64,000 nucleotides of DNA from positions 1-64,000 of IMG/VR virus record IMGVR_UViG_3300015249_000001. One strand, written 5' to 3'. The notes under the pieces were generated by a model. That model was not told where the DNA came from, searched no databases, and saw only the letters and a program-made list of their open reading frames with translations. This document shows positions 15,378 to 43,852 of the stretch, one piece after another. Numbering within the stretch: the first letter of the stretch is position 1; each line of letters opens with the position of its first letter. The translations under genes were made by a program, and so were the position numbers. The DNA is from a virus.

Positions 15378-15386
15378 GATAAGCTC

Positions 15387-16342: not shown

Positions 16343-16345
16343 GGC

Positions 16346-16651: not shown

Positions 16652-16789
16652 TGGGGGTTAGCTCCTTTGTGTTAACTTTTTGAATTACAGGGTGTATAGT
16701 ACAAACACCTGGATAGCTTTGCAAGGCGATAAGCGGTTCGTCACCGTTTCCAGGAATCCTCGACTAAACCTATAACGTAAGGTGTCTAT

Positions 16790-17446: not shown

Positions 17447-17467
17447 GCTTACTTAGTACGCTTAGCC

Positions 17468-18697
17468 TTAAGCCCCTATAACCAAACCAGTAAAGGCTTC
17501 TGGGTAAAGCTTAAAAATGGCGGTCCCGTAATCAAAACGAAGGCCCTGCCCCCTTCTCATCACGAAAGTCTCAACCGCACTGTAGCTCGCACTGATGTTT
17601 GTCACTTGCCTTAAGGCATACCGACGGTCAAAGCCCACTACCCGGTCTGCACCCACAACAGCCGTAGGCACCAACAACAGCTTAGGCAAGGGCATCCCCA
17701 TGTTCTCGATAGAGTAATCCGCAGGGAACCGGTTAGCCTGTGAGCTAGTGTCGGTAAGCACGGTGGGTTTACCTGACCTGGCCTCGATAGCCAAGGCTGA
17801 GTCGATGTCCGTAACTACGTCAGTGACGGACATTGTTTGGTATTTTTCACGCAGCCATTTTACCCAAGCCAGTTGGGTGATAGGGTTGGCAGCATTGATG
17901 GTTGCCACCGTGTCGTAGGTGGAGGCATTCGCAAAAGTCACTGCAGCACTGCCAGTGTCCACGTCACCATTGATGATGCCAGCCATGTCAGATTCAATAC
18001 GGCGGATACGCTCACCACGGGCCTGCGAAGCCAACATCACAGCCACAAGGTCAATTGAAGTAGCTTTCAGTGCCTCATCCGCCACCATCAAGCCAATGCT
18101 CTTGGTAGGGATAGTGTAAGAACGCTGGCTCAGGGTAATGCTCACCATGACCGCAGGCTCTGCCAATTGTCCAATAGGTTGGGCTGCAGAAGCTTCTGGC
18201 CCGGTCACGTTAATCAAAGGCTGGTCAGCGCGTGGGCCAATAATGTTGTCCTTGACGGCAATCGCGTTTTCCCAGGGGATGAGATAATCATCCTTATCCT
18301 CCATAAGCACCGCATTAATCATCTGCATCATGATTTCCTGGAACAGGATGCGGCCTGAAATATTGTCTGCCCCAACACCTTGCGGACGCACCAGCGCCCC
18401 TGCCGACAAGTCGGTTACGCCGTGCATGATTTCCGCCATCGTGGTTGCACGGATACCCCTTGCAGGGTCAGGACGTACGCGGATACCCGCACAAGCGGCA
18501 AACTGCTCTAAAGGGGTGCCGTCTGGGTAAACTACCCGGTCCCCCTCCAAGACCTGCTTGACAGGGTACTTTTGTGCATAATACTGGGCCAACGACAGCT
18601 TGCTCTCTGACGCTGCCCTGTAGTCCGAGACATCCAAGGTAACTTCTGCCCTGTTGTCGTTCCTGTCGATAAAGCTTACTACGTCTTGTGCTGACAT
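17468..18697 (-). CDS. major capsid protein
   Basis: 409 aa; GGAG SD; position after protease/scaffold and decoration-like gene as in lambda-type head modules; size typical. Confidence 0.7.
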   Translation of the reverse strand: MSAQDVVSFIDRNDNRAEVTLDVSDYRAASESKLSLAQYYAQKYPVKQVLEGDRVVYPDGTPLEQFAACAGIRVRPDPARGIRATTMAEIMHGVTDLSAGALVRPQGVGADNISGRILFQEIMMQMINAVLMEDKDDYLIPWENAIAVKDNIIGPRADQPLINVTGPEASAAQPIGQLAEPAVMVSITLSQRSYTIPTKSIGLMVADEALKATSIDLVAVMLASQARGERIRRIESDMAGIINGDVDTGSAAVTFANASTYDTVATINAANPITQLAWVKWLREKYQTMSVTDVVTDIDSALAIEARSGKPTVLTDTSSQANRFPADYSIENMGMPLPKLLLVPTAVVGADRVVGFDRRYALRQVTNISASYSAVETFVMRRGQGLRFDYGTAIFKLYPEAFTGLVIGA

Positions 18698-18739
18698 TAC
18701 GGTCTCCGATAAATTAATTGAATTGTATAACCGTAACGG

Positions 18740-19183
18740 TTAAACCCTTTCCATTAGGATAGTGTCACCCACCGCACCGGTACCGGTAACGATGCTGAGA
18801 ACCTCCCAGACGAACTTTGCAGGCGAGCCTTTCTTGACAATAGGCAGGGCGTCTGCAGTGCCGAGGGCTGATTGTGCCCCAGCAACCAAGCCGTCACCCA
18901 CCACCACTGCAAGAGTGCCCCCTACTTTAGCCAGTTTGCGCTTATTTTTCTGGACGGAGCCAAAACTAAAGCCTTGGTTAACAGTGGCAGTTTCCATTGC
19001 GATGACGAAGCCCTCAATTTCATCGCCATCCGCAGCAAGCACGTAATTGTTGGCAGTGCCCTTCTTTACCAGCTTGCCCTTGTCGGCATCGACGAACTTG
19101 CCTGAGGAGTTTGCACCCAAGGCAGCACTTACAATGTCCGCCATAGGTGAATTTACTAATTCGGTGAATGCAAAAGTGGTCAT
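18740..19183 (-). CDS. head decoration-like protein (candidate)
   Basis: 147 aa; G/A/V-rich; sits between protease/scaffold and capsid gene (lambda D slot). Confidence 0.5.
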   Translation of the reverse strand: MTTFAFTELVNSPMADIVSAALGANSSGKFVDADKGKLVKKGTANNYVLAADGDEIEGFVIAMETATVNQGFSFGSVQKNKRKLAKVGGTLAVVVGDGLVAGAQSALGTADALPIVKKGSPAKFVWEVLSIVTGTGAVGDTILMERV

Positions 19184-19227
19184 ATCAAATACCTTCTAAT
19201 CAGTGTTAAGGGGAAATTTCTAAAGGC

Positions 19228-20766
19228 TTAATGCCGGCCAATACGGGACAGTGGCAGTAAAACTGCACGCTCCAACTCTGCCGCCGCTTTATCAGTTTGG
19301 GCATCAGCCTCTTCATCCCCTCCCGTGGCGGCGTGCTGCCCACCTTTACCAAACTTCTTGGCCAACAAGGCCTTGGCATCAGTATGCTGCTTGACCAGCA
19401 GGGAAGGTGAAAGGGCCAGCAGTGCATCCCCTGAGGGGGCTTGCCCTCCTGCGGCCACAAACGACCACTGGATTGCCTCGACCGCAATAGCCTTGAGGCC
19501 AGCCTCGCTGGCTTCTGCTAGGGACATTTGGGATTTTAAGGTTTCATGGGCCAACTTCAAGGTGGCCAATTCGGTGCTGGCTGCCACCAACTGGGCTGTC
19601 AACGTTGTAACGGAAGAGGCCAACACCCCTAGGTCTGCCTGGTCTGCCTGGGCTTTCACCTCGGAAGGTGCAGGGGTTTCGGGTTCAGCCGGTTCGTTTT
19701 CCACCGGGTCTGTTGCCGGTTCACCCTCCCCACCAGCCTGGAGTTGTGCAGAAGCTGCCGCCAATGCAGCAGCCGTTTCAGCGTTCAAATGTAGTTTAGC
19801 CATGTCCGAGGTCTCCGGTAAGTCATGTGAAGCAGCAAGTTTTAGTTGCTGTGTAAAGGGTGTCTGGGCTTGTCGCTGACTATTCTGCGACACTTTCTTT
19901 TGCAAATCAATAACTAGCTGGTCAAGAGTGATATTTTTATTGACAAGCTTCTTGGCTAGGGCAACATCCCCATACCAAACTTCCCCGGTAGCCAGTGTGG
20001 ACTGGACATAAGCCAAGTCCAGGGGCATCGACGTGGCTATGTGCTGGTTGAACCTGGAGCCTGCCTGGGTGACTTCAACGTCCAGCATGTCCGACCCTAG
20101 GGAGGACAGTTTCTCGTAAGGGTTGCCTGCCCCCTTGCCTGGGTTGGATTTAAACACACGGCGCTTGACGCCATCCATCTTATCCATTTCAGTAATTTCG
20201 TAAACCATCTTGATAACCCCTATGCTGCCTAGCAAGGCGTGCTGCGAGGCATAGAAGTTGCCACTGGTGACGGCTGCCCAAACCCCTGCGGAGCAGCACA
20301 GTGTGTCCGTGTAACCATACACGGGCACGAGCTTGGCCACAGTGCCCTTCAAGAAGTCCGTGAAAGCCCCAATGCCCGTGACCATGCCACCAGATGTGTT
20401 GTAAACAATCACGATCACCTTGCACCCCGCGTTAAGGGCCGCAATGCAGGCATTCCTTATGTCTTCGTAGCCACACATGCCTCCCCAACGCATTTCCCAC
20501 CAACCACAACAACCTTCGATCAAGCTCCCCTTGACGTAGACCATGCCTACGTCGCCCACCTTCTTTAGCAGGGGGTGCTCAATTTCCATGTCTTCCTGCT
20601 CCTCCTCCCACTCATCGGCCATCGCAAGGATGTCAGGGGAAGCGTGCAGCACCATCTTGTCCAGCTTGGCCAGGGAAGAAAGGTAGGTGTCGAACCCCTG
20701 GGCAGTGCCCGCCCAGGGGATGACATGGAGACCCCCACCTACTGTAGCCTTAGTTATGTCGCTCAT
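19228..20766 (-). CDS. S49 (SppA/ClpP-type) prohead protease fused to Ala/Glu-rich scaffold-like C-terminus
   Basis: 512 aa; VIVIVYNTSGGMVTG, CCSAGVWAA and LLGSIGVI motifs of S49 peptidases; C-terminal half A/E/L-rich. Confidence 0.85.
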   Translation of the reverse strand: MSDITKATVGGGLHVIPWAGTAQGFDTYLSSLAKLDKMVLHASPDILAMADEWEEEQEDMEIEHPLLKKVGDVGMVYVKGSLIEGCCGWWEMRWGGMCGYEDIRNACIAALNAGCKVIVIVYNTSGGMVTGIGAFTDFLKGTVAKLVPVYGYTDTLCCSAGVWAAVTSGNFYASQHALLGSIGVIKMVYEITEMDKMDGVKRRVFKSNPGKGAGNPYEKLSSLGSDMLDVEVTQAGSRFNQHIATSMPLDLAYVQSTLATGEVWYGDVALAKKLVNKNITLDQLVIDLQKKVSQNSQRQAQTPFTQQLKLAASHDLPETSDMAKLHLNAETAAALAAASAQLQAGGEGEPATDPVENEPAEPETPAPSEVKAQADQADLGVLASSVTTLTAQLVAASTELATLKLAHETLKSQMSLAEASEAGLKAIAVEAIQWSFVAAGGQAPSGDALLALSPSLLVKQHTDAKALLAKKFGKGGQHAATGGDEEADAQTDKAAAELERAVLLPLSRIGRH

Positions 20767-20769
20767 CTG

Positions 20770-22269
20770 TCAATTGCTCCCGGTCTTCTTGCTAGGTAAG
20801 GACTTGCCCCCAGGCTGGCTGGTCGGGCTGCCCTGGCTTGTGCCTTCGTTTAGGTTACGGGCTTGCCCGTCCGAATTTAATTGCATGTCCGTGGGCACTG
20901 TCTGCTGCTGGGGGTTAAGGAACATGCTGCCCGACAGCACCGGGGCAGTTGGCGACCGTGCCCCCGCCCTGACCACATGGGCGAACTCGTCATCTGTATA
21001 CAGGCCAAGGCTGAGCTTCTGCAGGTGCTGCTGGAACATGACGCTGTTGTGTGCAGACAACTCACTGGCAGGCCTTATGTTGATGTCGTCGAAGGCAAAC
21101 TTACAGTAACTGTCTGTGCCCGCCTTTAGGCGCACGGCAAGGGTGACCGCCCTGGACAGCACGGTCTCGACCGGCACCTGGATGGACCGCACCATCTTCA
21201 AGTACACCAAGGCCTCCGTAGTGGCCAGGTTCTGTGAACCCGTGCCCAAGCCCAACACGGACGACATGGACTTCAAGGAGGACGCCATCATGGAACCCAG
21301 GATCTCCAGCAAGGAAGAGTAATCCGCCTTGTCCCCCTTCCCCGACAACACGTCAGCGTCCGCCGTATCATACATCACCAGGGCATCCTCAGGTTCCAGG
21401 CCGCGCAGCAAAGCCGTGACTTCTTCCCTGACTGAATTGAAATACTTGGCCATTTCAACAGGGTCTGACTGGACTTCCAGGCTTGCCGACTGCTTGACGC
21501 TTTCCTGCACCAGCTTCACGATCAGCCTGGAATGGCCTGACCTGCGCAACACGCGGGACAAGTCCTCCAGGAACTCCGTAAACACGAAGATCATCTGCAG
21601 GGCAGCTTCCAGTGGGCTTCTTGGGTGTATTGAAGAGGATTGCTGGTGGGTGGCGGCGTAGAAGAAGGTGGGGATGTCCAGGGAAATCGGCTTGGCTTCC
21701 CCTTGGGCCACCTGCTCTGGGAATATAGACCCATCCCCCCGAGGCTTCCAACGCAAGGAGGGCACTGGCACGGGTATCATTTTTTCCGGCAGGATAAAAG
21801 GGTTGAGCACCAACTCCAAGGCACAAGCCCCAGTCTGCATGACTTCCTTTAACAAGGATTCCAGCAAGCCTTTTGTTGACATCTTGTCCCCATAGCCCAC
21901 CGAGTAGTCATAGAGCGTGTCGGCAGATGCCAGCACCTCCTTTGCCACCCTGGTGGCCACTGGGTCGAACTCTTCCGTGCCCGCCTTGTAGGCTGTGACA
22001 AGGTACCCGCTCATGGCTAGTTGTATATAAGAATGGACTGCCGCCGAGAAAATCCCGTTGAACCTGGTCAACGCCCGGATCGCGTCCACCGTGGACAACT
22101 GCCTAAACTGCTGGATAGACGTATTGAGCAGCGACTGTTCCAGGTCGGCAATGGCCGTGCCCGTGGACTTGGAGAACCCTGGGTCCGTCACCCTGGCCTT
22201 GCTGGCAACCACACTGCGGGGCACTATGACCGTGGCGCCCGCCTTGCCCTTAACCTTGGACTCTGCCAT
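20770..22269 (-). CDS. portal protein
   Basis: 499 aa from ATG 22269 (GGGGG SD; track ORF starts at TTG 22281); directly upstream of S49 protease, size and position of lambda-type portal. Confidence 0.8.
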   Translation of the reverse strand: MAESKVKGKAGATVIVPRSVVASKARVTDPGFSKSTGTAIADLEQSLLNTSIQQFRQLSTVDAIRALTRFNGIFSAAVHSYIQLAMSGYLVTAYKAGTEEFDPVATRVAKEVLASADTLYDYSVGYGDKMSTKGLLESLLKEVMQTGACALELVLNPFILPEKMIPVPVPSLRWKPRGDGSIFPEQVAQGEAKPISLDIPTFFYAATHQQSSSIHPRSPLEAALQMIFVFTEFLEDLSRVLRRSGHSRLIVKLVQESVKQSASLEVQSDPVEMAKYFNSVREEVTALLRGLEPEDALVMYDTADADVLSGKGDKADYSSLLEILGSMMASSLKSMSSVLGLGTGSQNLATTEALVYLKMVRSIQVPVETVLSRAVTLAVRLKAGTDSYCKFAFDDINIRPASELSAHNSVMFQQHLQKLSLGLYTDDEFAHVVRAGARSPTAPVLSGSMFLNPQQQTVPTDMQLNSDGQARNLNEGTSQGSPTSQPGGKSLPSKKTGSN

Positions 22270-24120: not shown

Positions 24121-25902
24121 ATGTCGAACCCACTCCTTATAGACCTGATAGACAATGTGCGGTCGTCCATAGACCGCACTTCCGTGGACTACGCCACCTG
24201 GCTGTGCAACAACTTCCAGAACCCCAAGAGGCCTCAGGAACCCTGGTCGTTCAAGGACCATGAGTTCCAGGTGGAGATTGCCTCCGCAGGGGACGACGTG
24301 CATACGCTTGACGCCCAGAAGTGCGCCCAGGTCGGCCTCTCCACCATAGAGATACTATCCCTGCTGGCGTTCGCCGCCCTGCACGACTCCCTCAAGGCCG
24401 CCTATGTCCTGCCCACCGCCAAGTTCGCCCAGGATTTTGTGCAGTTGCGGTTCGACCCTATCATCCGGCAGTCCCCAAGGATCTCATCCTTATTATCAAA
24501 CGCCAATGATAATAAGTCGATGAAGCAGGTCGGCACCTGCCACCTTGTGTTCAAGGGCACTTCCGGGGAGTCCCAGGCCATTTCCGTGGACTTGGACATG
24601 CTGATGGTGGACGAGGTCAACTTCTGCAACGCCAAGGTGCTGTCCAGCTTCTCTTCCCGCCTACAACACTCGGACTTGCGCCTGTTCCGCCGGTTCTCCA
24701 CGCCCACCCTCCCAGGTTTCGGCATTTCCCTGCTGGCCAAGGAAGGCAGCATGGGGCGCTACCTTGTCAAATGCCTGCACTGCGGGCACTGGTGCGCCCC
24801 CAGCTTCTTCCGTGACCTGCGTGGCCGCAACCTGCAAGCGTTCCTGGCAAGGTTCGAGAAGTCCGCCACCGACATCCGCCCAGCCGACATTTCCCACCTG
24901 CAGGACTGGTTCAGGGAAGCCCCAGGGGGCAATGACGCCCACCTGGTGTGCGAGCACTGCCAGCGCAACCTTGAAGCCTCCCTCAGGGACGCCTCCCGGC
25001 GGCAGTGGGTGCATGAGTCCCCCACCAAGTTCAAGGAAGGCCACCGCAGCTACTACGTGAAGCCCTTCGACCTGCCGAAGTACAACGCCACCCCCGAGGT
25101 GCTGCTGTCCATGAAGGACTACACCTATGGGGATTTTGTCAACTTCCGGCTCGGGGAGGAACACGAGTCCGCCGAGAACTCCTTCCTGGTCAACCTCATC
25201 AAGTCCTACTGCACCGTGCCCCCCACCCCCATCGGCAACATCCTGGCAGGCGCTTCCGGCCACGCCCCCGGCACGCTCTACATCGGCTCCGACCTTGGCA
25301 AGACCAACCATGTCGCCATCGGCAGGGAAGGCGCTTCTGGGCAACTGGAGGTCATCTGCTTCTGTACGGTGGACGTGGCGCAGCTCCGTGAAATGTTCGG
25401 CGAGGCCAACTTCGGCAAGTGGCTGGCCAAGGTGTTCCTTGGGGGCAAGGCAAGGCGGATGGTGCTGGACTCCGCCCCTTCCTACGAGCCTGCGCTTTTC
25501 TGTTACGGCCAGCTCCCCCTGGACTGCTCCTTCGGCGCCTACTACGTCCAGCGCGGCGTCGGCAAACCGGACATCTATGACTTCAAGTCCGGGCAAGGGG
25601 TGGTCAACATCTGCCGCACGGAGGCCTTCGACGAGCTGGCAGCCGCGCTCAACTCCGGGGGCCTCCTGCTGCCCTCGGACTCGGAGAAGCTGGGCGTCCT
25701 CGACCACCTCGGCAACTTCAAGAAGGTCAAGACAATGGACAGCAAGGGGGGCACAAGGGAGAGCTGGCAGGATGTCGGCGGCCCCGACCACTACGCCCAC
25801 GCACTGCTGTACCTGTGGGCAGCCTACACGTCGATGGTCAACCGGCGCAAGGCATCGAATGTCCTGGCCTTCCCTTCCGTGGGCAAGGCCAAGATGAAGT
25901 AA
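24121..25902 (+). CDS. terL: large terminase subunit (GpA-like)
   Basis: 593 aa; Walker-B-like LDMLMVDEVNF, CLHCGHW...CEHCQ zinc module, overall architecture as in lambda GpA-family terminases. Confidence 0.85.
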   Translation: MSNPLLIDLIDNVRSSIDRTSVDYATWLCNNFQNPKRPQEPWSFKDHEFQVEIASAGDDVHTLDAQKCAQVGLSTIEILSLLAFAALHDSLKAAYVLPTAKFAQDFVQLRFDPIIRQSPRISSLLSNANDNKSMKQVGTCHLVFKGTSGESQAISVDLDMLMVDEVNFCNAKVLSSFSSRLQHSDLRLFRRFSTPTLPGFGISLLAKEGSMGRYLVKCLHCGHWCAPSFFRDLRGRNLQAFLARFEKSATDIRPADISHLQDWFREAPGGNDAHLVCEHCQRNLEASLRDASRRQWVHESPTKFKEGHRSYYVKPFDLPKYNATPEVLLSMKDYTYGDFVNFRLGEEHESAENSFLVNLIKSYCTVPPTPIGNILAGASGHAPGTLYIGSDLGKTNHVAIGREGASGQLEVICFCTVDVAQLREMFGEANFGKWLAKVFLGGKARRMVLDSAPSYEPALFCYGQLPLDCSFGAYYVQRGVGKPDIYDFKSGQGVVNICRTEAFDELAAALNSGGLLLPSDSEKLGVLDHLGNFKKVKTMDSKGGTRESWQDVGGPDHYAHALLYLWAAYTSMVNRRKASNVLAFPSVGKAKMK

Positions 25903-27217: not shown

Positions 27218-27916
27218 TCAAGGGCTTGGCCAGGCGGTGGCCCACCCTGGGATAGCCTGCCTCGCCCAGCCTGGGTGGCTTGAACTCAACCGTGTATGGA
27301 CTTCCTCCCACCCGTCCCTTGCAAAGTCCGTGGGGTTGCCTTGGTGGTTGCTTATGGCAAGGTCAGGCATTTCCACTGGCAGCCCTTGCTCGGAGGGGTG
27401 GGTGTCCTGTTGGCTGCCCTGTGGGCTTATATGCCCTACCCGGTTTATATGCACTACAAGTAGCGCCCTACCCGAGTGGGCGGCGTAGGCTTCCAGGGCA
27501 AGGCGCTCTTGGGGGAACCTGAGGTCGTCGATGATTACAAGGGGGTGCAGGGGCAGCCGGGCCACCAGGATTTCAGACCACAAGGCGGGGCTTATGGTGT
27601 TGTGCGCCCATTCGGTCCCAAGGGTCTGCATGAGGCGCCTGCAGGTGATGTTGAGGAAGGGGATGGTTTCTTCCTTGTGGGTGAGGTAATGGCTTGGGGG
27701 GTGGGGCAAGGGGACTTGCCGGAGGAAGGCTGTTATTGTTGCTTTCAGGGGGGCGGCAAAGGAGAGGATGGGGGGTTGTGGGGCAGGACGGGGCAGGGAT
27801 TGGGTGGGGGAAGTGCCCGATGGGTGGGCAAGGAGGGTGGAAAGTTCCTCCTGTATGTGGCGGGCTAAGGTTGACTTGCCGGATTGCTTTGGGGCGGAGA
27901 GGGCGATTATGGTCAT
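27218..27916 (-). CDS. dNMP-kinase-like P-loop protein
   Basis: 232 aa from ATG 27916 (MTIIALSAPKQSGKST P-loop); MQTLGTEW, VIIDDLRFPQE and HPSE motifs as in phage dNMP kinases; track ORF adds 86 Pro-rich codons from the C-rich leader. Confidence 0.6.
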   Translation of the reverse strand: MTIIALSAPKQSGKSTLARHIQEELSTLLAHPSGTSPTQSLPRPAPQPPILSFAAPLKATITAFLRQVPLPHPPSHYLTHKEETIPFLNITCRRLMQTLGTEWAHNTISPALWSEILVARLPLHPLVIIDDLRFPQERLALEAYAAHSGRALLVVHINRVGHISPQGSQQDTHPSEQGLPVEMPDLAISNHQGNPTDFARDGWEEVHTRLSSSHPGWARQAIPGWATAWPSP

Positions 27917-28100
27917 GGGTCGGGTTCCTTTTCTTTTCAGGGGTTGGGGTGGGTTACTTTTCTTTTTCAGGTGTAAAGGGGTAGTATAAGGTATGGCAGG
28001 GTGTAAGGTAAAAGGTTTGGAGGGGGGTTTGGGGGGGGAGGGGGTACAGTCATGGTGTGGCCCCCGGCCACCGGCCAATAAATCCCCCCTGGGCCACACA
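27917..28100 (-). other. C-rich/G-poor 5' leader tract (G-rich on + strand)
   Basis: + strand runs G6 (28022-27), G8 (28031-38), G5 (28040-44); on the sense (-) strand nearly G-free; contains AACCCCCCTCCA (complement of 28018-28029) shared with tract at 31402-31413. Confidence 0.6.
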
Positions 28101-28115: not shown

Positions 28116-28136
28116 AACCCATCTTGAAAATAATGC

Positions 28137-28166
28137 TTGACATCTTGCCAATCATTATGGTAAGCT
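28137..28166 (+). promoter_or_regulatory. sigma70-like promoter candidate (extended -10)
   Basis: TTGACA (28137-42), 18-nt spacer ending TGg, TAAGCT (28161-66); faces first + strand early gene. Confidence 0.4.
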
Positions 28167-28215
28167 GTACCCACGTTGCAAGGTTTACCGGCCTTGCCCC
28201 CGCAACCATCACTTT

Positions 28216-28227
28216 TTGTGATTACAA
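28216..28227. promoter_or_regulatory. dyad TTGTGATTACAA (1 mismatch)
   Basis: 13 nt before ATG 28241. Confidence 0.6.
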
Positions 28228-28240
28228 AAGGAATAAGACA

Positions 28241-28405
28241 ATGCTTACTGAATTTTTAATGTCAATGCTGGCGCATGGTGCCAGCCTGGATGACACAAGA
28301 CTATTCTTATCCGTGGCCGGCATGGCCCCGGATGAGATAGACGCGGCCCTAAGGGCCATGCTTGATGCGTTAGTTCAAGCAAACAATCAACTTAAACTTA
28401 ACTAA
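28241..28405 (+). CDS. hypothetical small protein
   Basis: 54 aa from ATG 28241, which is preceded by dyad 28216-28227 and AGGAATAAGACA; track ORF 28124 runs through the regulatory region. Confidence 0.45.
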   Translation: MLTEFLMSMLAHGASLDDTRLFLSVAGMAPDEIDAALRAMLDALVQANNQLKLN

Positions 28406-29878: not shown

Positions 29879-30022
29879 AAATTAAGCAGAAACATGGGTT
29901 ATTTTTCCTGGCCCGGACATATCGCCGGGGCCTTTATCGAATTGGCGGTTGAAAATTACAGGGAAAATCTAGGTATCACACCTAACTTATAAAGTCAATC
30001 ATTCCCACTATACCTAGTATGC

Positions 30023-30050
30023 AAAAAAGGGGCGAAAAGCCCCTTTTTTT
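30023..30050. terminator. bidirectional rho-independent terminator
   Basis: AAAAAA-GGGGC-GAAAA-GCCCC-TTTTTTT. Confidence 0.75.
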
Positions 30051-30135
30051 CGTTTAATTTTCGTGCCAAAAATAATACCAAGTATATAGAAGTCCTTACC
30101 TTGCCCCCCCGCAAATTCCATGCCATAATAAAAAA

Positions 30136-30165
30136 TTGCAATCACAAAAAGTGACTGTCTATATA
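30136..30165 (+). promoter_or_regulatory. promoter-like element with dyad in spacer
   Basis: TTGCAA, 18-nt spacer containing TCACAAAAAGTGA, TATATA. Confidence 0.3.
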
Positions 30166-30222
30166 GGGTAAGGCGTTACACGTGCTTTTTCCCCAGAATC
30201 GCAGCAATTCAACAATCACTTT

Positions 30223-30234
30223 TTGTAATTACAA
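30223..30234. promoter_or_regulatory. dyad TTGTAATTACAA (exact)
   Basis: within 22-nt long form AATCACTTTTTGTAATTACAAA (30214-30235); no gene follows. Confidence 0.7.
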
Positions 30235-30240
30235 AACGAG

Positions 30241-30256
30241 AGTCAAATATTTGACT
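30241..30256. repeat. 16-bp perfect palindrome AGTCAAATATTTGACT
   Basis: read directly in AT-rich non-coding region. Confidence 0.85.
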
Positions 30257-30512
30257 AACTTAAAAGATATGCTGACTAGGCTCAAAAATCAATCAACTGC
30301 TTGAAAAACAAAATCTTTTAAAAAGTCAATAGGCGCGTGAAAAGGGCCTGAAATGGTCGGTTTTTACTTTCTGACATTAACGCTTTTCTGGTTTTTGAGA
30401 AAGCGGGCAGAAAAGTGTCATTGTCTAATAGAGCTTAATTTCAATAACTTATCGAAAAAGTTCACCCAACATAGACGTAGGTATCCTTACAGCTTGTAAG
30501 GCAAGTCTTGGC

Positions 30513-30540
30513 AAATTGTAAGTTACATAACTTACAATTT
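30513..30540. repeat. 28-bp inverted repeat (13-bp arms, 2-nt spacer)
   Basis: AAATTGTAAGTTA-CA-TAACTTACAATTT; arms contain TTGTAA half-sites related to the genome-wide dyad. Confidence 0.9.
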
Positions 30541-31011
30541 GTAAATTATTAGCTGGCACAGTAATTGCATACAAACCCCTGAAACGCACGTCGTTCTAAC
30601 ATATTCGACTAAAAAAATCAGTTGACGATTTACAAGGCACTGATATACAACAACAAATAGTTTAAAAAGCCACTGAGCTTTTTTGTGGTCAAAAACGTAA
30701 TGTGTGATGAACCGTGCATTACAGACCAAAAAAATCGGTTTTTTCTTATCAAACGCCGGAAGTCCGCCGGTTTTTGGCCGTTTTTAGCCGAAAATCGGGC
30801 AGGTGCTTGGCAAGGGGCATCGTATAAATACCCCTTTATTAGTACTTATTAGAGCTATATACCATTGACGAAAAAAAAAGTACTTCTTTACAGTGTAAAG
30901 TATGTGCCTGACTATTGACGCTTTTTTGGTCAAGGGGCTGTAAGTTATTGATTTTATTTTGAAGGCTCTACAAGGTAGATGTTAGCTTTTCTTCGATAAT
31001 AGCTAACCGCT

Positions 31012-31025
31012 ATTTGTATACAAAT
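31012..31025. repeat. 14-bp perfect palindrome ATTTGTATACAAAT
   Basis: zero-spacer variant of the TTGTA/TACAA dyad. Confidence 0.85.
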
Positions 31026-31112
31026 TGCCATGTACCTGCCAGCTATCTCAGAATTGCCCAGTTGGCAAAATGTAAGGTACGATAACTTTTTGAAATTGAA
31101 AGAAAAATATTT

Positions 31113-31124
31113 TTGTAATCACAA
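31113..31124. promoter_or_regulatory. dyad TTGTAATCACAA (1 mismatch), long form in reverse orientation
   Basis: 31112-31133 is the reverse complement of AATCACTTTTTGTGATTACAAA. Confidence 0.6.
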
Positions 31125-31149
31125 AAAGTGATTAATTGCCTTGAAAATA

Positions 31150-31158
31150 GGGGGGGGG
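31150..31158. repeat. G9 homopolymer
   Basis: counted from sequence (31150 g plus eight g at 31151-31158), intergenic. Confidence 0.8.
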
Positions 31159-31379
31159 TCAAAATTTTTTCTAATATTAGGAGGCCAAAAAGTATCAAAC
31201 CGTCGGAGATTTATACAATCTGCCCTCTCCTACGCATCGACATTTTTTGGCCTTCAAAATTTATATTTTTTTTCTCCATACTGCCACAACCTAGCCGTTA
31301 GACCCTTTAAAACTTTATTTTCACTACCCGCAAAACCGCATTCTACCTACAACCTCACCAAAACTACGCGGAAGTGGTA

Positions 31380-31700
31380 CACCAAGCTCCTGCCCCTTGT
31401 CAACCCCCCTCCAGCCGGCCCAAAAAATCCAGTCCCCCCAGCCCCCTCCCTAGAAAAACCCCCCAAAAAACCCAACCCTCCCATACCATTCCCCTTTTTC
31501 TGCAAATTGGTTGAAATGAACCAATTTTTGAAATTTCAAAAAAACAACGTTCAATTAACCTCTCCTTACCATTCCCCTTTCCTTGCCCATTTTCCTCCGA
31601 CCATTCCCCCTGTACTGCCCCCTTTTCCCAAAACCTCCAAAAACTACCCGGAAGCATTTGTCAAGTTTATCGTATATCCCCTTCCCTTAAACCTCCACAG
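31380..31700 (+). other. C-rich/G-poor tract on + strand
   Basis: runs of C5-C7 separated by A-runs; very few G; contains AACCCCCCTCCA at 31402-31413; upstream of gene 31976. Confidence 0.6.
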
Positions 31701-31748
31701 GAAGTGTTAATGGACTATACTTTATTTTTTGCCAAAATCTTCTGACGG

Positions 31749-31777
31749 TTGACAAAAGTAATACCCAAGGGTACTAT
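31749..31777 (+). promoter_or_regulatory. sigma70-like promoter
   Basis: TTGACA (31749-54), 17-nt spacer, TACTAT (31772-77). Confidence 0.55.
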
Positions 31778-31975
31778 GCCCAGCAAGCCTAGTCTGACGG
31801 ATACCCCAAACGGTATTACAGTATATTTTACATATGTATTTGTAAGCTTTTGATTATTATAGAAAGTGCTAGTGACCATTTTTGTTCAATCCGTCGAACT
31901 TGCTTTACTCCGTGCCAATACTTTCCAAAATCCGGCACAACCGACCAAACTATTATCAACCAACAGGAAACAATA

Positions 31976-33742
31976 ATGACCACAGAACCTGAAATTCACC
32001 CTAAAGAACCAATGCAGAACTTAAAGCCAAGGTATGCCAACCTCCCGGAAGCATCCTATCCGGGAGGCTACCAGCCAACCTTGTACATAGCGCCAAGGCC
32101 AGCCTTGTACGACCACAGGGCGGAATCCACCACCCCCCTCCCCCATGTGCCGTCGCCCCCTCCCAACCCCTTGTGGGGACCCGTGTTCGACTGGGTGCAG
32201 CGGCAGGCGCCCTTCAACTACACGCCTGCCCACACCCACGCCTTCGGGGCGTCGGGGCCGGAAGCGCCAAGGCTGCTGGGGAGGGCGTCCAGCCTGCCGC
32301 ACGGCTACGACCACGCAGGGGCGCTGCCGTGCGGGGCGTTGAAGTTCTTTGATGTCCTTGCCTTCTTGGGGCAAACCGGGATGCCGCACGCACAGGCCAG
32401 GGTGCGCACGACGGGCATTGAGTTCGGCATGGCGGTGGCGGAATTGCCGGTGGCTTCAAGACTGACAGAAAACTTCAGTGGCAAGGCGCACAAGTGTGCG
32501 AAGCCGCCACGGAAGCGGGTGCTGAAAGTGTGCAGGTACACCTTGACGTGCGAAAGGTTCCTGCGCTTCTTGTGGGCGAAGCCGCCAAGGGACTGGGAAG
32601 GCAACGCCAAGCCGTTGGGGAGGCCGGCCAGCACGATGTCCTTGCAAGAACTTTCGGAAGCGTACCGGAAGCCGTTGCAGCGCCTGCCGGAAGGCCATTC
32701 CGCAAGGTATGTCCCACTTGACGAGCTGTCCTTGCCGGAAGAGGTGCGGCAATATGCCTGGGAGGCCCATGCCTGGATGGCGTCCGAAGGCATGGAAATC
32801 GAGGGTTCCCCGGAAGAGGACAGGTTGAAGCGCGGCGTGGACGTGCAGCCCGACCTTGTGGATTGCCGTGGCGGCAACCTGCGCCTTGCCGGGAAGCTGT
32901 TCCTGAACCCCCTGCCCTACCCCGCCAGCATGGCCTACACGTCATGGGAGGCGATGGCGGAATACAATTCCCTTGTCCCGGTGCTGTTCAAGGCGGCAGG
33001 GCACCACACGGGGATCTGGGAGGCCCACAGGACGGCATGGTCAGAAACCCACTTGGGTTACAAGGCAGTGTTGAATGGCGGCAGCGGCAACCTGCCGGAA
33101 GAGTGGAGGGCCAGGAGGTTCTCCAGCCGCAGCCCCTTCCGGGATGACCCTAAGTTTGTGGCCCAGGTCAACCAAAACCTCACCCTCTCCACGGGCACCC
33201 TTGTCGGTGCGGGCTTCTGGCACAAGGGGCCTTGGAAACTTGGCTTCGGGCAAGGCAGGCTGTATTGGAAGCCGGGGCATGTCAACAAGGTGGTCAGGAA
33301 AATCATGGAAAACTTCGGGCTGCCCCAATATGAAAAGCGCATTTCGTCCCTGCCGATGTCAGTGGAAGACCCTGCCGCGTACCTTGCGCATGGCTGGGCG
33401 GAAGACCCGTTCAGGCGGGACGCCACGGGCAAGGCGGCCAAGGCGTACCACTACCTCAAGGACGGCTGCGTGAGCCTGTCGCAGAGGCCGTCATGCAAGG
33501 GGCACCGGGAGAAGCTGCCTGCCGTGCACCCCATCGTGTACGCGCTCCTGTTCGGCCACAGCAGCCGGAAGCAGGAAGTGCTGACCTACCTGCTGCTGCC
33601 CACGGAAGAAGGCCACAGGGCGCTGGGCTTGCCCCCCTCGGACTATTACGACTTCTCTTGCATAGGGGCGCTTTACAAGGCGTCCCTTGGGTGGGCCGGC
33701 GAGGTGGAGGAAGGCGAGGTGCGCTGGGTTGAGCAGCAGTAA
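31976..33742 (+). CDS. large orphan protein
   Basis: 588 aa from ATG 31976 (AGGAAACAATA upstream); GC-rich; no motif recognised. Confidence 0.6.
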   Translation: MTTEPEIHPKEPMQNLKPRYANLPEASYPGGYQPTLYIAPRPALYDHRAESTTPLPHVPSPPPNPLWGPVFDWVQRQAPFNYTPAHTHAFGASGPEAPRLLGRASSLPHGYDHAGALPCGALKFFDVLAFLGQTGMPHAQARVRTTGIEFGMAVAELPVASRLTENFSGKAHKCAKPPRKRVLKVCRYTLTCERFLRFLWAKPPRDWEGNAKPLGRPASTMSLQELSEAYRKPLQRLPEGHSARYVPLDELSLPEEVRQYAWEAHAWMASEGMEIEGSPEEDRLKRGVDVQPDLVDCRGGNLRLAGKLFLNPLPYPASMAYTSWEAMAEYNSLVPVLFKAAGHHTGIWEAHRTAWSETHLGYKAVLNGGSGNLPEEWRARRFSSRSPFRDDPKFVAQVNQNLTLSTGTLVGAGFWHKGPWKLGFGQGRLYWKPGHVNKVVRKIMENFGLPQYEKRISSLPMSVEDPAAYLAHGWAEDPFRRDATGKAAKAYHYLKDGCVSLSQRPSCKGHREKLPAVHPIVYALLFGHSSRKQEVLTYLLLPTEEGHRALGLPPSDYYDFSCIGALYKASLGWAGEVEEGEVRWVEQQ

Positions 33743-37216: not shown

Positions 37217-37539
37217 TGGTGCCCATGAACCCGATCACCATCCCGGTGCCCACCATCGTCGAGTGGGCGCAGTACGGCATCACCCCAGGGGTCATGATGT
37301 TCATGATGGTCGCTGGCTGGCTTTTCACCGTGGCCATCGTGTGCAGGATGTTCATCCTGTTCGTCAAATGGCACACCTCGGAAATGGGCAAGGTGGGGGC
37401 GGCACATGCGGTCGAGCGGGACAACTTCTACAACAAGCTTGACGCCTTGCGGGACTCCCATGACAGGGAAATATCCAGGCTGTACGACCTGATCGGGGAG
37501 CTTTCTGACAGGGTGGCACGGGCCTTGGATAATGCTTGA
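37213..37539 (+). CDS. membrane protein with C-terminal coiled coil
   Basis: 108 aa; ATGA overlap; TM GVMMFMMVAGWLFTVAIVCRMFILF. Confidence 0.55.
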   Translation: MMVPMNPITIPVPTIVEWAQYGITPGVMMFMMVAGWLFTVAIVCRMFILFVKWHTSEMGKVGAAHAVERDNFYNKLDALRDSHDREISRLYDLIGELSDRVARALDNA

Positions 37540-37565
37540 CATATTGTAATTACAAAAGTTAATAT
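37536..37565 (+). promoter_or_regulatory. sigma70-like promoter with dyad in the spacer
   Basis: TTGACA (overlaps stop codon), 18-nt spacer containing TTGTAATTACAA (37544-55), TAATAT. Confidence 0.55.
37544..37555. promoter_or_regulatory. dyad TTGTAATTACAA (exact)
   Basis: inside the 18-nt spacer of promoter 37536-37565. Confidence 0.7.
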
Positions 37566-37571
37566 TGATCT

Positions 37572-37671
37572 GCCAGCGGAAAGCAGTGGGGGCTTTCCGC
37601 TGGCGATTTCAAATCACCACCAACCCCGGAGATGCAAGGCGCCCCTCGTAGGCCTTGCACCGGGGTTTTTT
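37572..37671 (+). ncRNA. candidate structured leader / short RNA (two hairpins, second is a terminator)
   Basis: 13-bp perfect stem 37572-84/37592-604; CCCCGG..TGCAAGGC-11nt-GCCTTGCA..CCGGGG + T6 (37624-37671). Confidence 0.4.
37624..37671 (+). terminator. intrinsic terminator
   Basis: two-tier GC stem followed by TTTTTT ending at the base before ATG 37672. Confidence 0.6.
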
Positions 37672-37866
37672 ATGGGGAAAATTATGGGGCCTACTTTTTG
37701 GAATTTCTTCTGGCAGGCACACCTTCCGGGTGTGCTGGGGCTGTGTGGTATCTTCAATGTGCTGTTTTTTAAAGGCAGCCCGATAGGGTTGGGTTTTTCC
37801 TTGCTAGGCTTCTACTTGTCCGTCCTGGAACTCAAGTCCTTGATGGGCAAGTGCAGGCAGGGGTAG
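37672..37866 (+). CDS. small two-TM membrane protein
   Basis: 64 aa; MGKIMGPTFWNFFW... N-terminus resembles that of 33930 gene; no SD (starts right after terminator T-run). Confidence 0.4.
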   Translation: MGKIMGPTFWNFFWQAHLPGVLGLCGIFNVLFFKGSPIGLGFSLLGFYLSVLELKSLMGKCRQG

Positions 37867-41125: not shown

Positions 41126-41155
41126 TTGACAAGATGTAAAGAATGATGCTATACT
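41126..41155 (+). promoter_or_regulatory. sigma70-like promoter
   Basis: TTGACA, 18-nt spacer, TATACT. Confidence 0.6.
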
Positions 41156-41161
41156 ATTATC

Positions 41162-41218
41162 TCAAGTTGGGTTGTTGACTTGTCCTCCTACTGACCTGCC
41201 CTAAGGCGGGTCTTTTTT
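41162..41218 (+). ncRNA. candidate ~55-nt attenuated transcript
   Basis: region between promoter 41126-55 and terminator 41193-41218. Confidence 0.3.
41193..41218 (+). terminator. intrinsic terminator
   Basis: GACCTGCC-CTAA-GGCGGGTC (one G-U) followed by TTTTTT. Confidence 0.6.
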
Positions 41219-41239
41219 GGGTAGGTGAATAATCACTTT

Positions 41240-41251
41240 TTGTAATTACAA
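41240..41251. promoter_or_regulatory. dyad TTGTAATTACAA (exact)
   Basis: long form 41231-41252; 16 nt before ATG 41268. Confidence 0.7.
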
Positions 41252-41267
41252 AACTTAGGAGAAGGCA

Positions 41268-41534
41268 ATGGCCTACTGTGCATACAATGGGGTCAACCAC
41301 CTGTACTACCGGGCGGACAACCTGGTTGACTTGGTGAAGTTGTTCACCAAGTTCCACATAGACGGAAAGACTGGCAAGACTGTGGTTAAAGTGGCAGGCT
41401 ATGCAGCCTGTCCCGGCACACGCTACAACATGAAGGAATGGACAGTGGGCGAGGTAGAAATCGACCTTGTTAAGCTTGTCCTTAGGGATATTAAGCGGGG
41501 GGATTACAAGATCACCCTATACAAGCAACTTTAA
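41268..41534 (+). CDS. hypothetical protein
   Basis: 88 aa; full cassette (dyad 41240-51, AGGAGAAGGCA) before ATG. Confidence 0.65.
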   Translation: MAYCAYNGVNHLYYRADNLVDLVKLFTKFHIDGKTGKTVVKVAGYAACPGTRYNMKEWTVGEVEIDLVKLVLRDIKRGDYKITLYKQL

Positions 41535-42393: not shown

Positions 42394-43852
42394 AAAGTTG
42401 CAAGCGCTCACCCCAGAACAAGAGGCCGCAATGCCGGGGTGGGCTGAGAAGTGGATAAACATAGGGCTTTGCACCGATGAGGCGGATTGGGAGGTGTCAA
42501 AGCAGGCCATAGCTGAGTGTTATGCCCTTGCTGGGCTGGAACCCCCTAAAAAGTACATCAAGGTGCAATCCCCCTTGGTGCTGGCGTTGGCCGCCCCAAC
42601 TGCTGATTTCATCTTGGGGTCCCTGCCCCAGGTCAGCCCTGTGGCCTTGGCAAGGGTTGGCGCTGTCAAAGAAGCCGTCAGCGGTGCCGTCAGCGCCGGC
42701 GTCAGGGATGCAGTCAACAACGCCGTCAGCGGTGCCGTCAGCGGCACCGTCAGGGATGCCGTCAGCGGTGCCGTCAGCGGTGCCGTCTTGTATGCCGTCA
42801 GCGGTGCCGTCAGCGGTGCCGTCTTGTATGCCGTCAGCGGTGCCGTCAGGGATGCCGTCAGGGATGCCGTCAGGGATGCCATCGTGGGTGCCGTCAGCGG
42901 TGCCGTCAGGGGTACCGTCATGGGTGCCGTCAGGGATGCCGTCAGGGGTGCCGTCAGCGGTGCCGTCAGGGATGCCGTCAGGGATGCCGTCAGGGATGCC
43001 GTGAGGGGTGCCGTCAGGGATGCCGTTAGCGGTGCCGTTGAGGGTGCCGTTTGGGATGCCACCGCTGATACCGTCAACGGTGCCGTGGGGGATGCCGTCA
43101 GGGATGCCGTTTGGGTTGCCGTCAACGGTGCCGTGGAGGGTGCCGTCTGGGATGCCGTTTTGGGCACCACCAAGGAGGGTGGGGTTAAAAACCCACTGGG
43201 CAAGCATATACAGGGAAATTGGGCCTATTACCTTGGTGGGCAGTCTTGGGCGGGCTGGAACTCCTTTGAATCCTTCTTCTTGGAAGTATGCCACTTAGGG
43301 ATACCGGATGAAATGAAGGCAAGGGCGGAGGCCTACAGGAAAGCCCAGTCTTCCTCTTTTTGGTGGTGGCCCCACAAGGATTTTGTGATGGTGTGCAACC
43401 GCCCCGTCAAGGTTAAACTAGAGGAAGGGCGCCTGCATTGTGCCGATGGTTTGGCCTTGCAGTGGCCAGATGGTTGGGGGATAGCTTCTTGGAAGGGCAC
43501 AGTCATACCTAACCAGTGGGTGTTGGGAGAAAAGCCCACAGCAGCAGAGTTGTTGCATTGGGAAAATGTTGAGCAAAGGCGGGCAGGGTTTGAATTGGTC
43601 GGGTGGGACAAGCTGTTATCCGAGCTGGACTACACCTTGGTTGATTCACACCCTAACCCGGAAATAGGAGATCTGATTGAGATAGATTTGCCGGACAGCG
43701 GCAAGGAACGTTTTATCAAGGTGATGTGCGGTACGGGAAGGCAGTTCGTCTTGCCCGTACCGCAGGAAATCCGCACCGTCATAGAGGCACAGGCATGGTC
43801 TTATGGGTTTGACCACCCACAAGATTTTTTATTACCAGAAGTGAGGACTTAA
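42383..43852 (+). CDS. A-V-x-x tetrapeptide-repeat protein
   Basis: 489 aa from ATG 42383 (dyad 42357-68 + AGGAGAAGGAA); 42 consecutive 4-residue units; globular Trp-rich C-terminal domain. Confidence 0.7.
   Translation: MGIKKLQALTPEQEAAMPGWAEKWINIGLCTDEADWEVSKQAIAECYALAGLEPPKKYIKVQSPLVLALAAPTADFILGSLPQVSPVALARVGAVKEAVSGAVSAGVRDAVNNAVSGAVSGTVRDAVSGAVSGAVLYAVSGAVSGAVLYAVSGAVRDAVRDAVRDAIVGAVSGAVRGTVMGAVRDAVRGAVSGAVRDAVRDAVRDAVRGAVRDAVSGAVEGAVWDATADTVNGAVGDAVRDAVWVAVNGAVEGAVWDAVLGTTKEGGVKNPLGKHIQGNWAYYLGGQSWAGWNSFESFFLEVCHLGIPDEMKARAEAYRKAQSSSFWWWPHKDFVMVCNRPVKVKLEEGRLHCADGLALQWPDGWGIASWKGTVIPNQWVLGEKPTAAELLHWENVEQRRAGFELVGWDKLLSELDYTLVDSHPNPEIGDLIEIDLPDSGKERFIKVMCGTGRQFVLPVPQEIRTVIEAQAWSYGFDHPQDFLLPEVRT
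42662..43165 (+). repeat. 42 tandem 12-nt units (consensus GCCGTCAGCGGT / GCCGTCAGGGAT)
   Basis: counted codon by codon: AVKE AVSG AVSA GVRD ... AVWD AVLG; in frame within 42383-43852. Confidence 0.9.

Follow-up and report, generated by a model that had tools for sequence, protein, structure and literature searches.

RESULTS

A gene-free region separates the packaging genes from the early genes

The DNA analyzed here, hereafter the window, comprises 64,000 nucleotides (nt), positions 1 to 64,000 of the IMG/VR record IMGVR_UViG_3300015249_000001. We focus on a region of about 2 kb within it, located between the stop codon at 29878 and the ATG at 31976, that a preliminary description had proposed to be free of genes. 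The window belongs to an uncultured tailed phage. An 81,574-bp contig of the European Nucleotide Archive (ENA) and several Logan contigs represent the same sequence, either as circular permutations of the window or overlapping with it. Joining the window to flanks taken from these matching contigs gave a near-complete genome of ~81.6 kb, which assembles as a circle and from which ~400 nt are missing. In this genome, the region sits between the packaging genes and the early genes, 4 kb downstream of the large terminase gene (TerL) and immediately upstream of the early array. It is the junction of the packaging operon and of a long rightward early/replication array, and between ~29993 and 31975 it is genuine control DNA, non-coding and acting in cis.

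The structural genes, which include those for the tape measure (2045 aa), the capsid, an S49 protease, and the portal, occupy the - strand from ~76 kb through the window origin to 22.3 kb. They are followed by a short + strand block encoding a lectin-like protein, a putative small terminase, a gpA-type large terminase (24121-25902), and a DUF1996 protein, then by a - strand dNMP kinase gene, and finally by + strand genes up to 29878. To the right of the region, an unbroken + strand array of early and replication genes runs for >40 kb, from 31976 to ~76 kb. This array opens with many small genes, continues with genes for an ArdC-like protein, a primase, an SNF2 helicase, HU, SSB, and PolA, and further carries those for a methylase, an intein-containing helicase, ThyX, and SbcCD. 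The proteins encoded directly on either side of the region (300, 77, 89, and 588 aa) received no family assignment and returned no homologues. The 588-aa orphan (31976-33742) is the first gene after the region; its GC content is 63%, with 200-nt windows as high as 71%, directly next to DNA of 36% GC, which creates a very sharp compositional step. The N-terminus of its product is proline-rich, and the structure model obtained for this protein was unusable (pLDDT 34). Importantly, two assemblies join the region to both of its flanks without interruption and with 0 mismatches, which rules out an assembly chimera, but a terminal repeat that had collapsed would give the same seamless contig at this place.

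Open reading frames (ORFs) were scored with a codon model trained on the long genes of this phage, on which real small genes reach 0.17-0.39 bit/codon. Nearly all ORFs in 29993-31975 scored no more than ~0.1 bit/codon, and most were negative, the exceptions being two very short ORFs; a 43-codon ORF at 30014-30145 scored 0.19/codon. Together with a protein search, the codon model thus bore out the absence of any credible gene from ~29993 to 31975. The non-coding DNA had been proposed to begin at the 29878 stop, which holds for most of that extent but probably not for its left edge. A 32-codon + strand ORF (29894..29992; codon log-odds 0.18/codon) is gene-like in codon usage and could be the last small gene of the upstream operon, so that the non-coding part probably begins at ~29993, just before a terminator. 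In two assemblies, the gene caller also predicted a 189-aa ORF at 31141-31710. This ORF is best explained as a chance open frame, since its sequence contains 9% G and hence few stop codons. Its codon score is -0.12 bit/codon, only the ORF itself was found among 1.84 billion representative proteins, and it reads the three copies of a DNA repeat, ACCATTCCCC, in three different frames. Moreover, it opens with a TTG that no Shine-Dalgarno (SD) sequence precedes, and an SD-like AGGAGG located inside the ORF is not followed by a start codon. This predicted "protein" shows that such regions can yield artefacts of G-poor sequence.

The least stable DNA of the genome coincides with a turn of the GC skew

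The GC content of the region is 0.34-0.40 in 200-nt windows across 29900-31300, against ~0.52 for the window, and the four 500-nt bins with the lowest GC in the reconstructed 81.6-kb genome are all located within the region. The label of AT-rich DNA that it had received is therefore accurate for 29900-31300 but not for the right third, which is a C-rich, G-poor tract described below. In a nearest-neighbour scan of the genome, the three 100-nt windows of lowest duplex stability all fell here. The least stable of all (31081..31180) contains a palindromic box, B3, and a G9 tract, the second lies at 30819..30918, and the third (30226..30325) is a candidate unwinding element beside another copy of the box, B2. 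The fourth is found at ~76.3 kb (beyond the window; L009), where the gene arms converge and the cumulative skew peaks, and it is a candidate terminus region.

Over the full genome, cumulative GC skew reached its global minimum at 32.5 kb, on the right edge of the region, and its maximum at 76 kb, the two points being ~44 kb, or 53% of the circle, apart. Since genes lie mostly on the - strand to the left and mostly on the + strand to the right, per-gene skew was regressed on both orientation and position. Position (replichore) had an effect of +0.068 (confidence interval [CI], 0.021 to 0.093), while that of orientation was -0.001 (CI, -0.027 to 0.045); the skew thus tracks where a gene lies and not the strand that carries it. 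Between 22.3 and 27 kb, genes of the + strand have a negative skew, like their - strand neighbours. A recent inversion is not the cause, given that relatives share the portal(-)/TerL(+) order. The window contains four matches to the IHF consensus, three of them in the region, and an HU-family protein is among the products of the phage. The sequence GATC is absent from the region, which is not significant because GATC is under-represented genome-wide.

A palindromic box recurs in the region and across the non-structural half of the genome

Two "long-form dyads" in opposite orientation had been noticed in the region. Both are present, and they turned out to be instances of a box that recurs across the genome, TCACTTTTTGTAATTACAA (TTGTAATCACAAAAAGTGA on the opposite strand), an operator-like family whose existence the preliminary description had missed. 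With up to 3 mismatches allowed, the box has 11 matches in the window against 0.01 expected. Its 12-bp palindromic core, TTGTAATTACAA (TTGTAnnTACAA), occurs at 25 sites in the genome, against ~0.4 expected, and 24 of the 25 are within 28-71 kb, the non-structural half. In nine genes, the core stops 12-16 nt short of the start codon and is followed directly by a conserved GGAGAAAGACA-ATG ribosome-binding block, and in two further genes the distance from its end to the start is 20-21 nt. An extended TCACTTT arm accompanies the core at seven sites, three of which (B1, B2, and B3) are in the region and two more no further than 2 kb away (28209 and 33743).

Box B1 (30136..30154, - strand) reads TCACTTTTTGTGATTGCAA on that strand and differs from TTGTAATCACAAAAAGTGA by 1 mismatch. 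Box B2 (30216..30234, + strand) has the sequence TCACTTTTTGTAATTACAA, belongs to a 26-nt near-palindrome that extends to 30241, and contains a perfect 16-nt palindrome, TTTTGTAATTACAAAA, at 30221-36; it is followed by an SD-like GAGAG and by a 17-codon TTG ORF of doubtful reality. B1 and B2 form a divergent, 23-nt inverted pair, 61 nt apart, and the folding window that holds this pair gave z = -5.5 on the - strand. Box B3 (31113..31131, - orientation) is an exact TTGTAATCACAAAAAGTGA on the + strand, with 0 mismatches, and its surroundings, up to 31134, include the inverted repeat TAATCAC-N5-GTGATTA as well as dyads at 31110-27 and 31116-34. Half-sites are also clustered at 30485..30545, where CCTTACAGCTTGTAAGG, a 30-nt palindrome (30512-41; CAAATTGTAAGTTA-CA-TAACTTACAATTTG) found in a dyad scan, and TTACAATTTGTAA bring together TTGTAA/TTACAA hexads and variants of them. 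These hexads occur 9 times in the region against ~2 expected, the highest number of any 2-kb genome bin.

The position of the box relative to promoters was informative. A scan for sigma-70-type promoters (at least 10/12 matches) found only 11 on the + strand of the genome, three of which are just upstream of, or enclose, boxes. Two of these promoters, at 41126 (TTGACA-18-TATACT; cassette 41126-41270) and 47052 (TTGACA-18-TACAAT; cassette 47052-47178), are followed within 40-60 nt by an intrinsic terminator and then by a long box, an SD sequence, and an ATG. At the third (37536, TTGACA-18-TAATAT; locus 37536-37672), the core box lies in the promoter spacer. As the box is palindromic and located downstream of or within host-type promoters of early/middle genes, it is best read, from its sequence and placement, as the operator of a dimeric DNA-binding protein, and less likely as a 5′-UTR element. 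Boxes often follow terminators, and we considered that the box could be a phage-specific promoter; this was rejected given the strong sigma-70-type promoters 35-100 nt upstream of boxes or enclosing them. Among the 37 small phage proteins compared to Pfam and PHROGs, none belonged to the ribbon-helix-helix (RHH), Arc, MetJ, or ParD families, although a divergent RHH protein can escape such searches, and no phage RNA polymerase or sigma factor was found, including in these comparisons. The exact 19-mer box had a single, chance match in viral contigs, in a giant-virus metagenome-assembled genome.

The loci that carry the box have further features of their own. The 41126 and 47052 cassettes look like promoter-proximal termination that needs antitermination, or like sources of very short leader RNAs, and the 41-kb leader contains UCCUCCU. 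The leader at 37536, of ~100 nt, has two hairpins, the second of which is a terminator (CCCCGG...CCGGGGTTTTTT) just before the next gene. At the long box locus 28209-28243, an ATG at 28241, 13 nt past the long box and an SD sequence, is the more likely start of the 90-aa gene that had been called at 28133-28405, and a sigma-70-like TTGACA is found at 28137.

The region is dense in dyads and carries a strong bidirectional terminator

All the elements that the preliminary description had listed were found in place, or no more than 1 nt away. Counting perfect inverted repeats with arms of at least 7 nt and loops of at most 12 nt, we found 12 in the region against 2.5 ± 1.7 expected, a number that was reached in none of 200 composition-matched simulations, and the region is the most dyad-rich 2-kb bin in the genome. 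The repeated TTGAC words that had also been pointed out occur 13 times, against ~3.8 expected as estimated from base composition.

A strong bidirectional terminator had been proposed at 30023-50, and this was supported by both its structure and its folding. Terminator T1 (AAAAAAGGGGCGAAAAGCCCCTTTTTT, 30023..30049/50) has an 11-bp stem and a 5-nt loop, with an A-run before and a T-run after, and the windows containing it fold with z = -4.0 on the + strand and z = -3.7 on the - strand. Judging from these features, T1 is a predicted strong bidirectional intrinsic terminator that would end the TerL-containing + operon and can also stop leftward transcripts.

Further to the right, the sequence displays a C7 tract (30104-10, read directly) and, from the dyad scan, a perfect 16-nt palindrome, AGTCAAATATTTGACT, at 30241-56. 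A direct near-repeat has its first copy at 30371-92, with 87% identity over 23 nt to the second (CTGACTATTGACGCTTTTTTGGT, 30908..30933, + strand), which overlaps the inverted repeat TTGAC-N9-GTCAA (30915-33). Between these copies, a GC-richer island on the + strand (30755..30790) combines a terminator-like hairpin with the phased tracts GCCGGTTTTTG, GCCGTTTTTA, and GCCGAAAATCG; the T5/T5/A4 tracts follow each other at a 10-11 nt phase (period 10, 2.4 copies), and their sequence suggests that this is likely bent DNA. The dyad scan also found CTTTACA-G-TGTAAAG (CTTTACAGTGTAAAG) at 30886-900 and the perfect palindrome ATTTGTATACAAAT at 31012-25. The G9 homopolymer of the + strand (31150-58, read directly) is followed by a long imperfect hairpin (31180..31255, 76 nt, + strand), which has a 14-bp outer stem, GGAGGCCAAAAAGU/ACAUUUUUUGGCCUUC, and a T8 run 11 nt after it. 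This hairpin has a folding energy of -29.2 kcal/mol (z = -5.5; 0/200 shuffles as stable; z = -6.1 in a sliding scan) and is without an Rfam match. Finally, two dyads found by the same scan, AAATTGGTTGAAATGAACCAATTT and the 18-nt palindrome TTTTTGAAATTTCAAAAA, lie in an AT island at 31504..31542, and the latter is a symmetric variant of the genome-wide box. Two repeat pairs of like spacing hinted at an ancient tandem duplication of ~545 nt, for which self-alignment gave no support.

One strong promoter and an extreme C-rich tract precede the early array

The sole strong host-type promoter of the region is a sigma-70-type sequence, TTGACA-17-TACTAT (31749..31777, + strand, 10/12 matches), with a leader of ~190 nt to the ATG at 31976; among the strong + promoters of the early/replication array, it comes first. 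A weak sigma-70-like sequence with a TG (TTGCCC-17-CATAAT, 30101..30129, + strand, 9/12 matches) has its predicted start on B1; promoter-like sequences that match this well are no more frequent in the region than expected by chance. Another weak promoter-like sequence, TTGACG-18-TACAGT (30865-94), is within the second least stable window. The preliminary description had envisaged a cluster of early promoters and non-coding RNAs. We counted 5 sigma-70-like sites in the region against 4.5 ± 1.9 in shuffles, with one reaching 10/12. Similarly, no Rfam family matched at its gathering score, the best E-values being 0.6-4 at 17-21 bits against thresholds of 50-80, and no tRNA or tmRNA was detected with ARAGORN. 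Since promoters are not enriched and neither Rfam nor tRNA matches were obtained, early promoters plus known non-coding RNAs are not the picture given by the sequence; the region may still produce transcripts of new kinds.

The right third of the region is dominated by a C-rich, G-poor tract (31311..31700, 390 nt, + strand), with 38% C and 9% G, that the AT island interrupts and in which short direct repeats are found (ACCATTCCCC three times, CCCAAAAAA and AAAACTACSCGGAAG twice each). Its C>G asymmetry is the strongest in the genome (+0.64, against a mean of -0.02 and a standard deviation [sd] of 0.12, that is, >5 sd). As + strand RNA, the tract would be nearly unstructured (-3 to -12 kcal/mol per 120 nt), and 31311-31700 has the at least 80 nt of C-rich, G-poor, little-structured RNA typical of Rho-utilization (rut) sites.

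A similar C-rich tract is present on the opposite strand at 27630-28069 (the + strand is 46% G and 11% C at 27651-28050), where it spans the leader of the dNMP kinase gene and the sequence coding for the N-terminus, both downstream of another box. This gene probably starts at 27916 (MTIIALSAPKQSGKST) instead of 28078 or 28174 (- strand), which leaves a C-rich leader of ~175 nt between the box at 28104-15 and the ATG at 27916 that mirrors 31311-31700. Homology of the two C-rich tracts was considered and rejected, as they have only short words in common.

Relatives appear to keep a gene-free gap at the same place

Neither the region nor the 20 kb around it had a blastn match in the phage collection, and the region had no DNA match in the plasmid and E. 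coli collections. TerL, in contrast to the flanking proteins, has many relatives. The closest TerL proteins, at most 61% identical, are encoded on short metagenomic contigs, and those of cultured relatives are 26-35% identical; among cultured phages, tblastn matches to TerL were mostly from Staphylococcus, Bacillus, Enterococcus, and Listeria phages. In one relative (TerL 60%), proteins of 288, 70, and 84 aa precede a 1.09-kb gene-free gap and a 612-aa protein, and in a second (TerL 54%), proteins of 296, 85, and 82 aa precede at least 0.68 kb without genes and the contig end. The contigs of these two relatives come from JGI 3300075153 (9.9 kb) and ERR12035938 (15 kb). The matching order in the present phage is 300, 77, and 89 aa, the gap, and 588 aa. 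Relatives thus appear to keep a gene-free gap at the same place, the homology of the flanking genes being inferred from size and order alone. The remaining retrievable relative loci reached no comparable gap or were too distant, and in JWF the gene order differs.

In an IMG/VR contig with a TerL 47% identical (L037), small genes fill most of the "gap," and two long perfect palindromes, TATTTCTTTACAAACGTATACGTTTGTAAAGAAATA and a dyad with ~20-nt arms, are found right after TerL (9074-9240). The first, TATTTCTTTACAAACGTATACGTTTGTAAAGAAATA, has the same TTACAA/TTGTAA hexads as the box of the present phage, 10 nt apart. In the literature on distant cultured relatives, we found nothing on termini.

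We also considered contig ends as pointers to the genome termini. The ENA and Logan contigs both break at ~42.8 kb, and this shared break is explained by a 12-nt tandem repeat array (42700-42960; GCCGTCAGCGGT variants) within a 506-aa glycine-zipper/DUF6745 gene, which rules these ends out as pointers. Repeat number differs between assemblies in another gene (60234-61109), which encodes SVEQ tandem repeats and is 48 nt (16 aa) longer in the window than in the ENA copy.

Other genes of this phage and of its relatives deserve mention. In the early array, the ArdC-like antirestriction protein, with a zincin peptidase domain, is encoded at 44265-45188 of the window, and a UvrD-like helicase split by an intein with a LAGLIDADG endonuclease is encoded beyond the window (L032 15139-17637). 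On a 97.6-kb Logan contig (SRR32020624; L005) with a TerL 53% identical, a full type IV secretion set adjoins the terminase and head genes (11780-21779). It comprises VirB4, TrbL, VirB8, CagX/VirB9, TrbI/VirB10, a VirB11-like ATPase, a VirD4/TraG-like coupling protein, and SLT, and this contig could represent a phage-conjugative element hybrid.

DISCUSSION

Our tentative preference, held at somewhat less than even chances, is that the control region contains an origin of bidirectional replication, or an end at which replication starts. The bidirectional terminator at 30023-50 would insulate the region from the TerL operon, and the promoter at its right end (31749-77) would start the early array. 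A phage-encoded dimeric DNA-binding protein may occupy the boxes, and its binding, combined with transcription from flanking promoters, could open the easily melted segments beside B2 and B3, where the phage primase, helicases, and DNA polymerase A would then begin synthesis both ways. The C-rich unstructured tract might bar transcripts that begin in the non-coding DNA or pass through it from the early operon, for example as a Rho loading site. An origin was among the options that the preliminary description had left standing, and it gains from the lowest duplex stability, the AT-richest DNA, and the GC-skew minimum, while it loses from the lack of DnaA boxes.

Several observations weigh against an origin. 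The region has 0 DnaA boxes (TTWTNCACA), against 5 in the window, and no classical direct-repeat iterons, its repeats being mostly dyads. The hexad cluster and the three long boxes are inverted, not direct, and the same box recurs at ~20 gene starts. No recognizable initiator gene adjoins the region, the flanking proteins being orphans, and the replication genes are 24-40 kb distant. Furthermore, the skew regression leans on ~11 discordant genes, orientation and position being confounded over the greater part of the genome. The skew turns across a broad zone (26.5-32.5 kb), in which the C-rich tract itself fixes the exact minimum. The GC skew would be equally expected from replication starting at physical ends located here. 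Lastly, the sub-elements are known from the sequence of this phage alone.

The candidate readings are not all mutually exclusive. The region may instead be devoted purely to transcriptional control, making non-coding RNAs or tiny peptides under boxes that act as operators on weak promoters, which we regard as possible but doubtful. A leftward transcript of ~105 nt would then run from B1 to T1 and a rightward one from B2 toward the terminator-like 30755-90, while the hairpin at 31180-31255 and the C-rich tract would serve as RNA elements (leader, sponge, or Rho site) regulating the early operon. Such a role would agree with the box being tied to gene expression everywhere else in the genome, with the arrangement of box, SD-like sequence, and start codon at B2, which is that of real genes, and with the similar C-rich leader that follows a box upstream of the dNMP kinase gene. 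The stable hairpin (z = -5.5) and the unstructured C-rich RNA point the same way, as do the predicted 40-60 nt transcripts that end at intrinsic terminators at 41.1 and 47.05 kb; since strong promoters meet terminators so soon at these two places, the phage is expected to make short leader RNAs. However, the 2 kb hold one strong promoter, with promoter-like sites at chance level, visual inspection revealed no sigma-70-like promoter ahead of B1 or B3 in the orientation of the box, no Rfam family was matched, and the candidate B1-to-T1 RNA is not unusually structured (z = -0.7). This role also predicts neither the GC-skew turn nor the extreme duplex instability. The skew turn would be equally expected if the region were a physical end of the packaged genome, that is, the boundary of a direct terminal repeat, a pac, or a cos that assembly collapsed into a circle. 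The early genes on the right would then enter the cell first, as in T5 or SPO1, and the dyads would serve terminase recognition or injection control. We consider this rather unlikely. The place of the region, 4 kb past TerL and just ahead of the early array, would suit it, as would the circular permutation of the assemblies relative to each other and the gpA family of a TerL whose cultured matches are mostly from phages of Staphylococcus, Bacillus, Enterococcus, and Listeria. On the other hand, the sequence bears no mark of an end, two assemblies carry the region uninterrupted and without differences, the contig breaks are explained by tandem repeats elsewhere, and a place 4 kb downstream of TerL is unlike that of lambda-type cos sites, which are just upstream of the small terminase gene.

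More symmetric designs can be imagined. The region and the mirrored C-rich tract at 27630-28069 might together form an operator-controlled module that emits C-rich unstructured RNAs outward or G-rich RNAs inward, these RNAs priming replication via stable R-loops on the C-rich template or regulating through several CCUCC (anti-Shine-Dalgarno-like) motifs, a proposal that is improbable as a whole. If true, it would be a phage origin or regulatory design not yet described, under a genome-wide RelB-like operator. That the region is functionless or decaying DNA, the remnant of an acquired AT-rich element or of eroded genes retained as a spacer, is more improbable still. Its composition is sharply unlike both flanks, searches of the phage, plasmid, and E. 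coli collections gave no DNA match to it, its box pattern has no meaningful match in viral contigs, and its longest ORF resembles a chance ORF in G-poor sequence, all of which decay would explain; yet decaying sequence would not be expected to show the excess of dyads, the exact box copies, the hexad cluster, or the terminator, and the gap is apparently kept at the same place in relatives. Least credible of all is that the proline-rich 189-aa ORF and/or several of the small ORFs are real genes. The gene caller did predict the former in two assemblies, an open frame of ~150 codons has, by a rough estimate, a probability of a few per cent in such G-poor sequence, and the 43-codon ORF at 30014-30145 has a gene-like score, but the codon score, start site, and solitary database match of the 189-aa ORF, the reading of its DNA repeats in three frames, and the low scores of nearly all other ORFs argue to the contrary.

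In uncultured phages, annotation hardly ever extends to origins, ends, and control regions, even though these decide how a phage replicates and is switched on. The region is a concrete candidate origin in a phage lineage without a cultured close relative, although the type of element is already well known. The most useful by-products of this analysis are the RelB-like operator, used genome-wide, and the cassettes of promoter, terminator, and box: one palindromic box at ~25 sites is the kind of signal that defines a phage-wide regulatory switch, and the protein that binds it, if found, would explain the timing of early and middle genes.

The candidate origin can be compared to those of well-studied phages. 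The T7 primary origin consists of promoters 1.1A and 1.1B followed by an AT-rich segment, T4 oriF and oriG combine a promoter with a downstream unwinding element, and the lambda origin needs nearby transcription. The present region likewise offers a segment that is free of genes, very AT-rich, and easily melted, with expression signals on its flanks, in a lytic phage with its own primase, helicase, and polymerase, and this segment coincides with the GC-skew turn. In contrast to these systems, the box that recurs here is no promoter, none of proven strength is directed into the unstable segments, and the origin is a candidate predicted from sequence; unlike in lambda, there are no direct iterons, and no initiator gene was recognized. 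A second group of systems concerns genome ends. The T5 terminal repeat includes a large non-coding segment rich in repeats and palindromes (the injection-stop region), SPO1-type phages have a terminal redundancy of early genes in a region packed with early promoters, and many Staphylococcus, Bacillus, Enterococcus, and Listeria phages have long terminal repeats. Like T5 and SPO1, the present phage is large, has its own replication genes, and places a kilobase-scale, dyad-rich non-coding block at the head of its earliest genes. It differs from them in showing no sign of a physical end or terminal repeat here and no sequence similarity by blastn against the phage collection, and from SPO1 in having one strong host promoter.

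The C-rich tract and the box each have their own counterparts. Sites for Rho utilization, such as lambda tR1, resemble the tract in being C-rich, G-poor, and unstructured as RNA in the direction of transcription. At 390 nt, the tract is far longer than known rut sites, and no upstream promoter of proven activity feeds it; by analogy, it could plausibly be a Rho-loading site. As for the box, its core TTGTAATTACAA consists of RelB-type hexads ([A/T]TGT[A/C]A) arranged as a 12-bp palindrome. The operator relO of E. coli relBE, which the ribbon-helix-helix repressor RelB binds at -10 to +17, is one bipartite 24-bp site at one promoter (PMC2812701). Its perfect right half-site is identical to the core TTGTAATTACAA, and the variant TTGTAATGACAA is one base off its left half-site. 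In the phage genome, unlike in relO, single 12-mers occur at ~25 places, and no RHH gene was recognized; the identity of the 12-mers may be a coincidence. Like relO, the phage box lies at or just downstream of the transcription start, near the ribosome-binding site. By analogy, and not as evidence of kinship, relO offers a precedent for the kind of protein that may bind the phage box.

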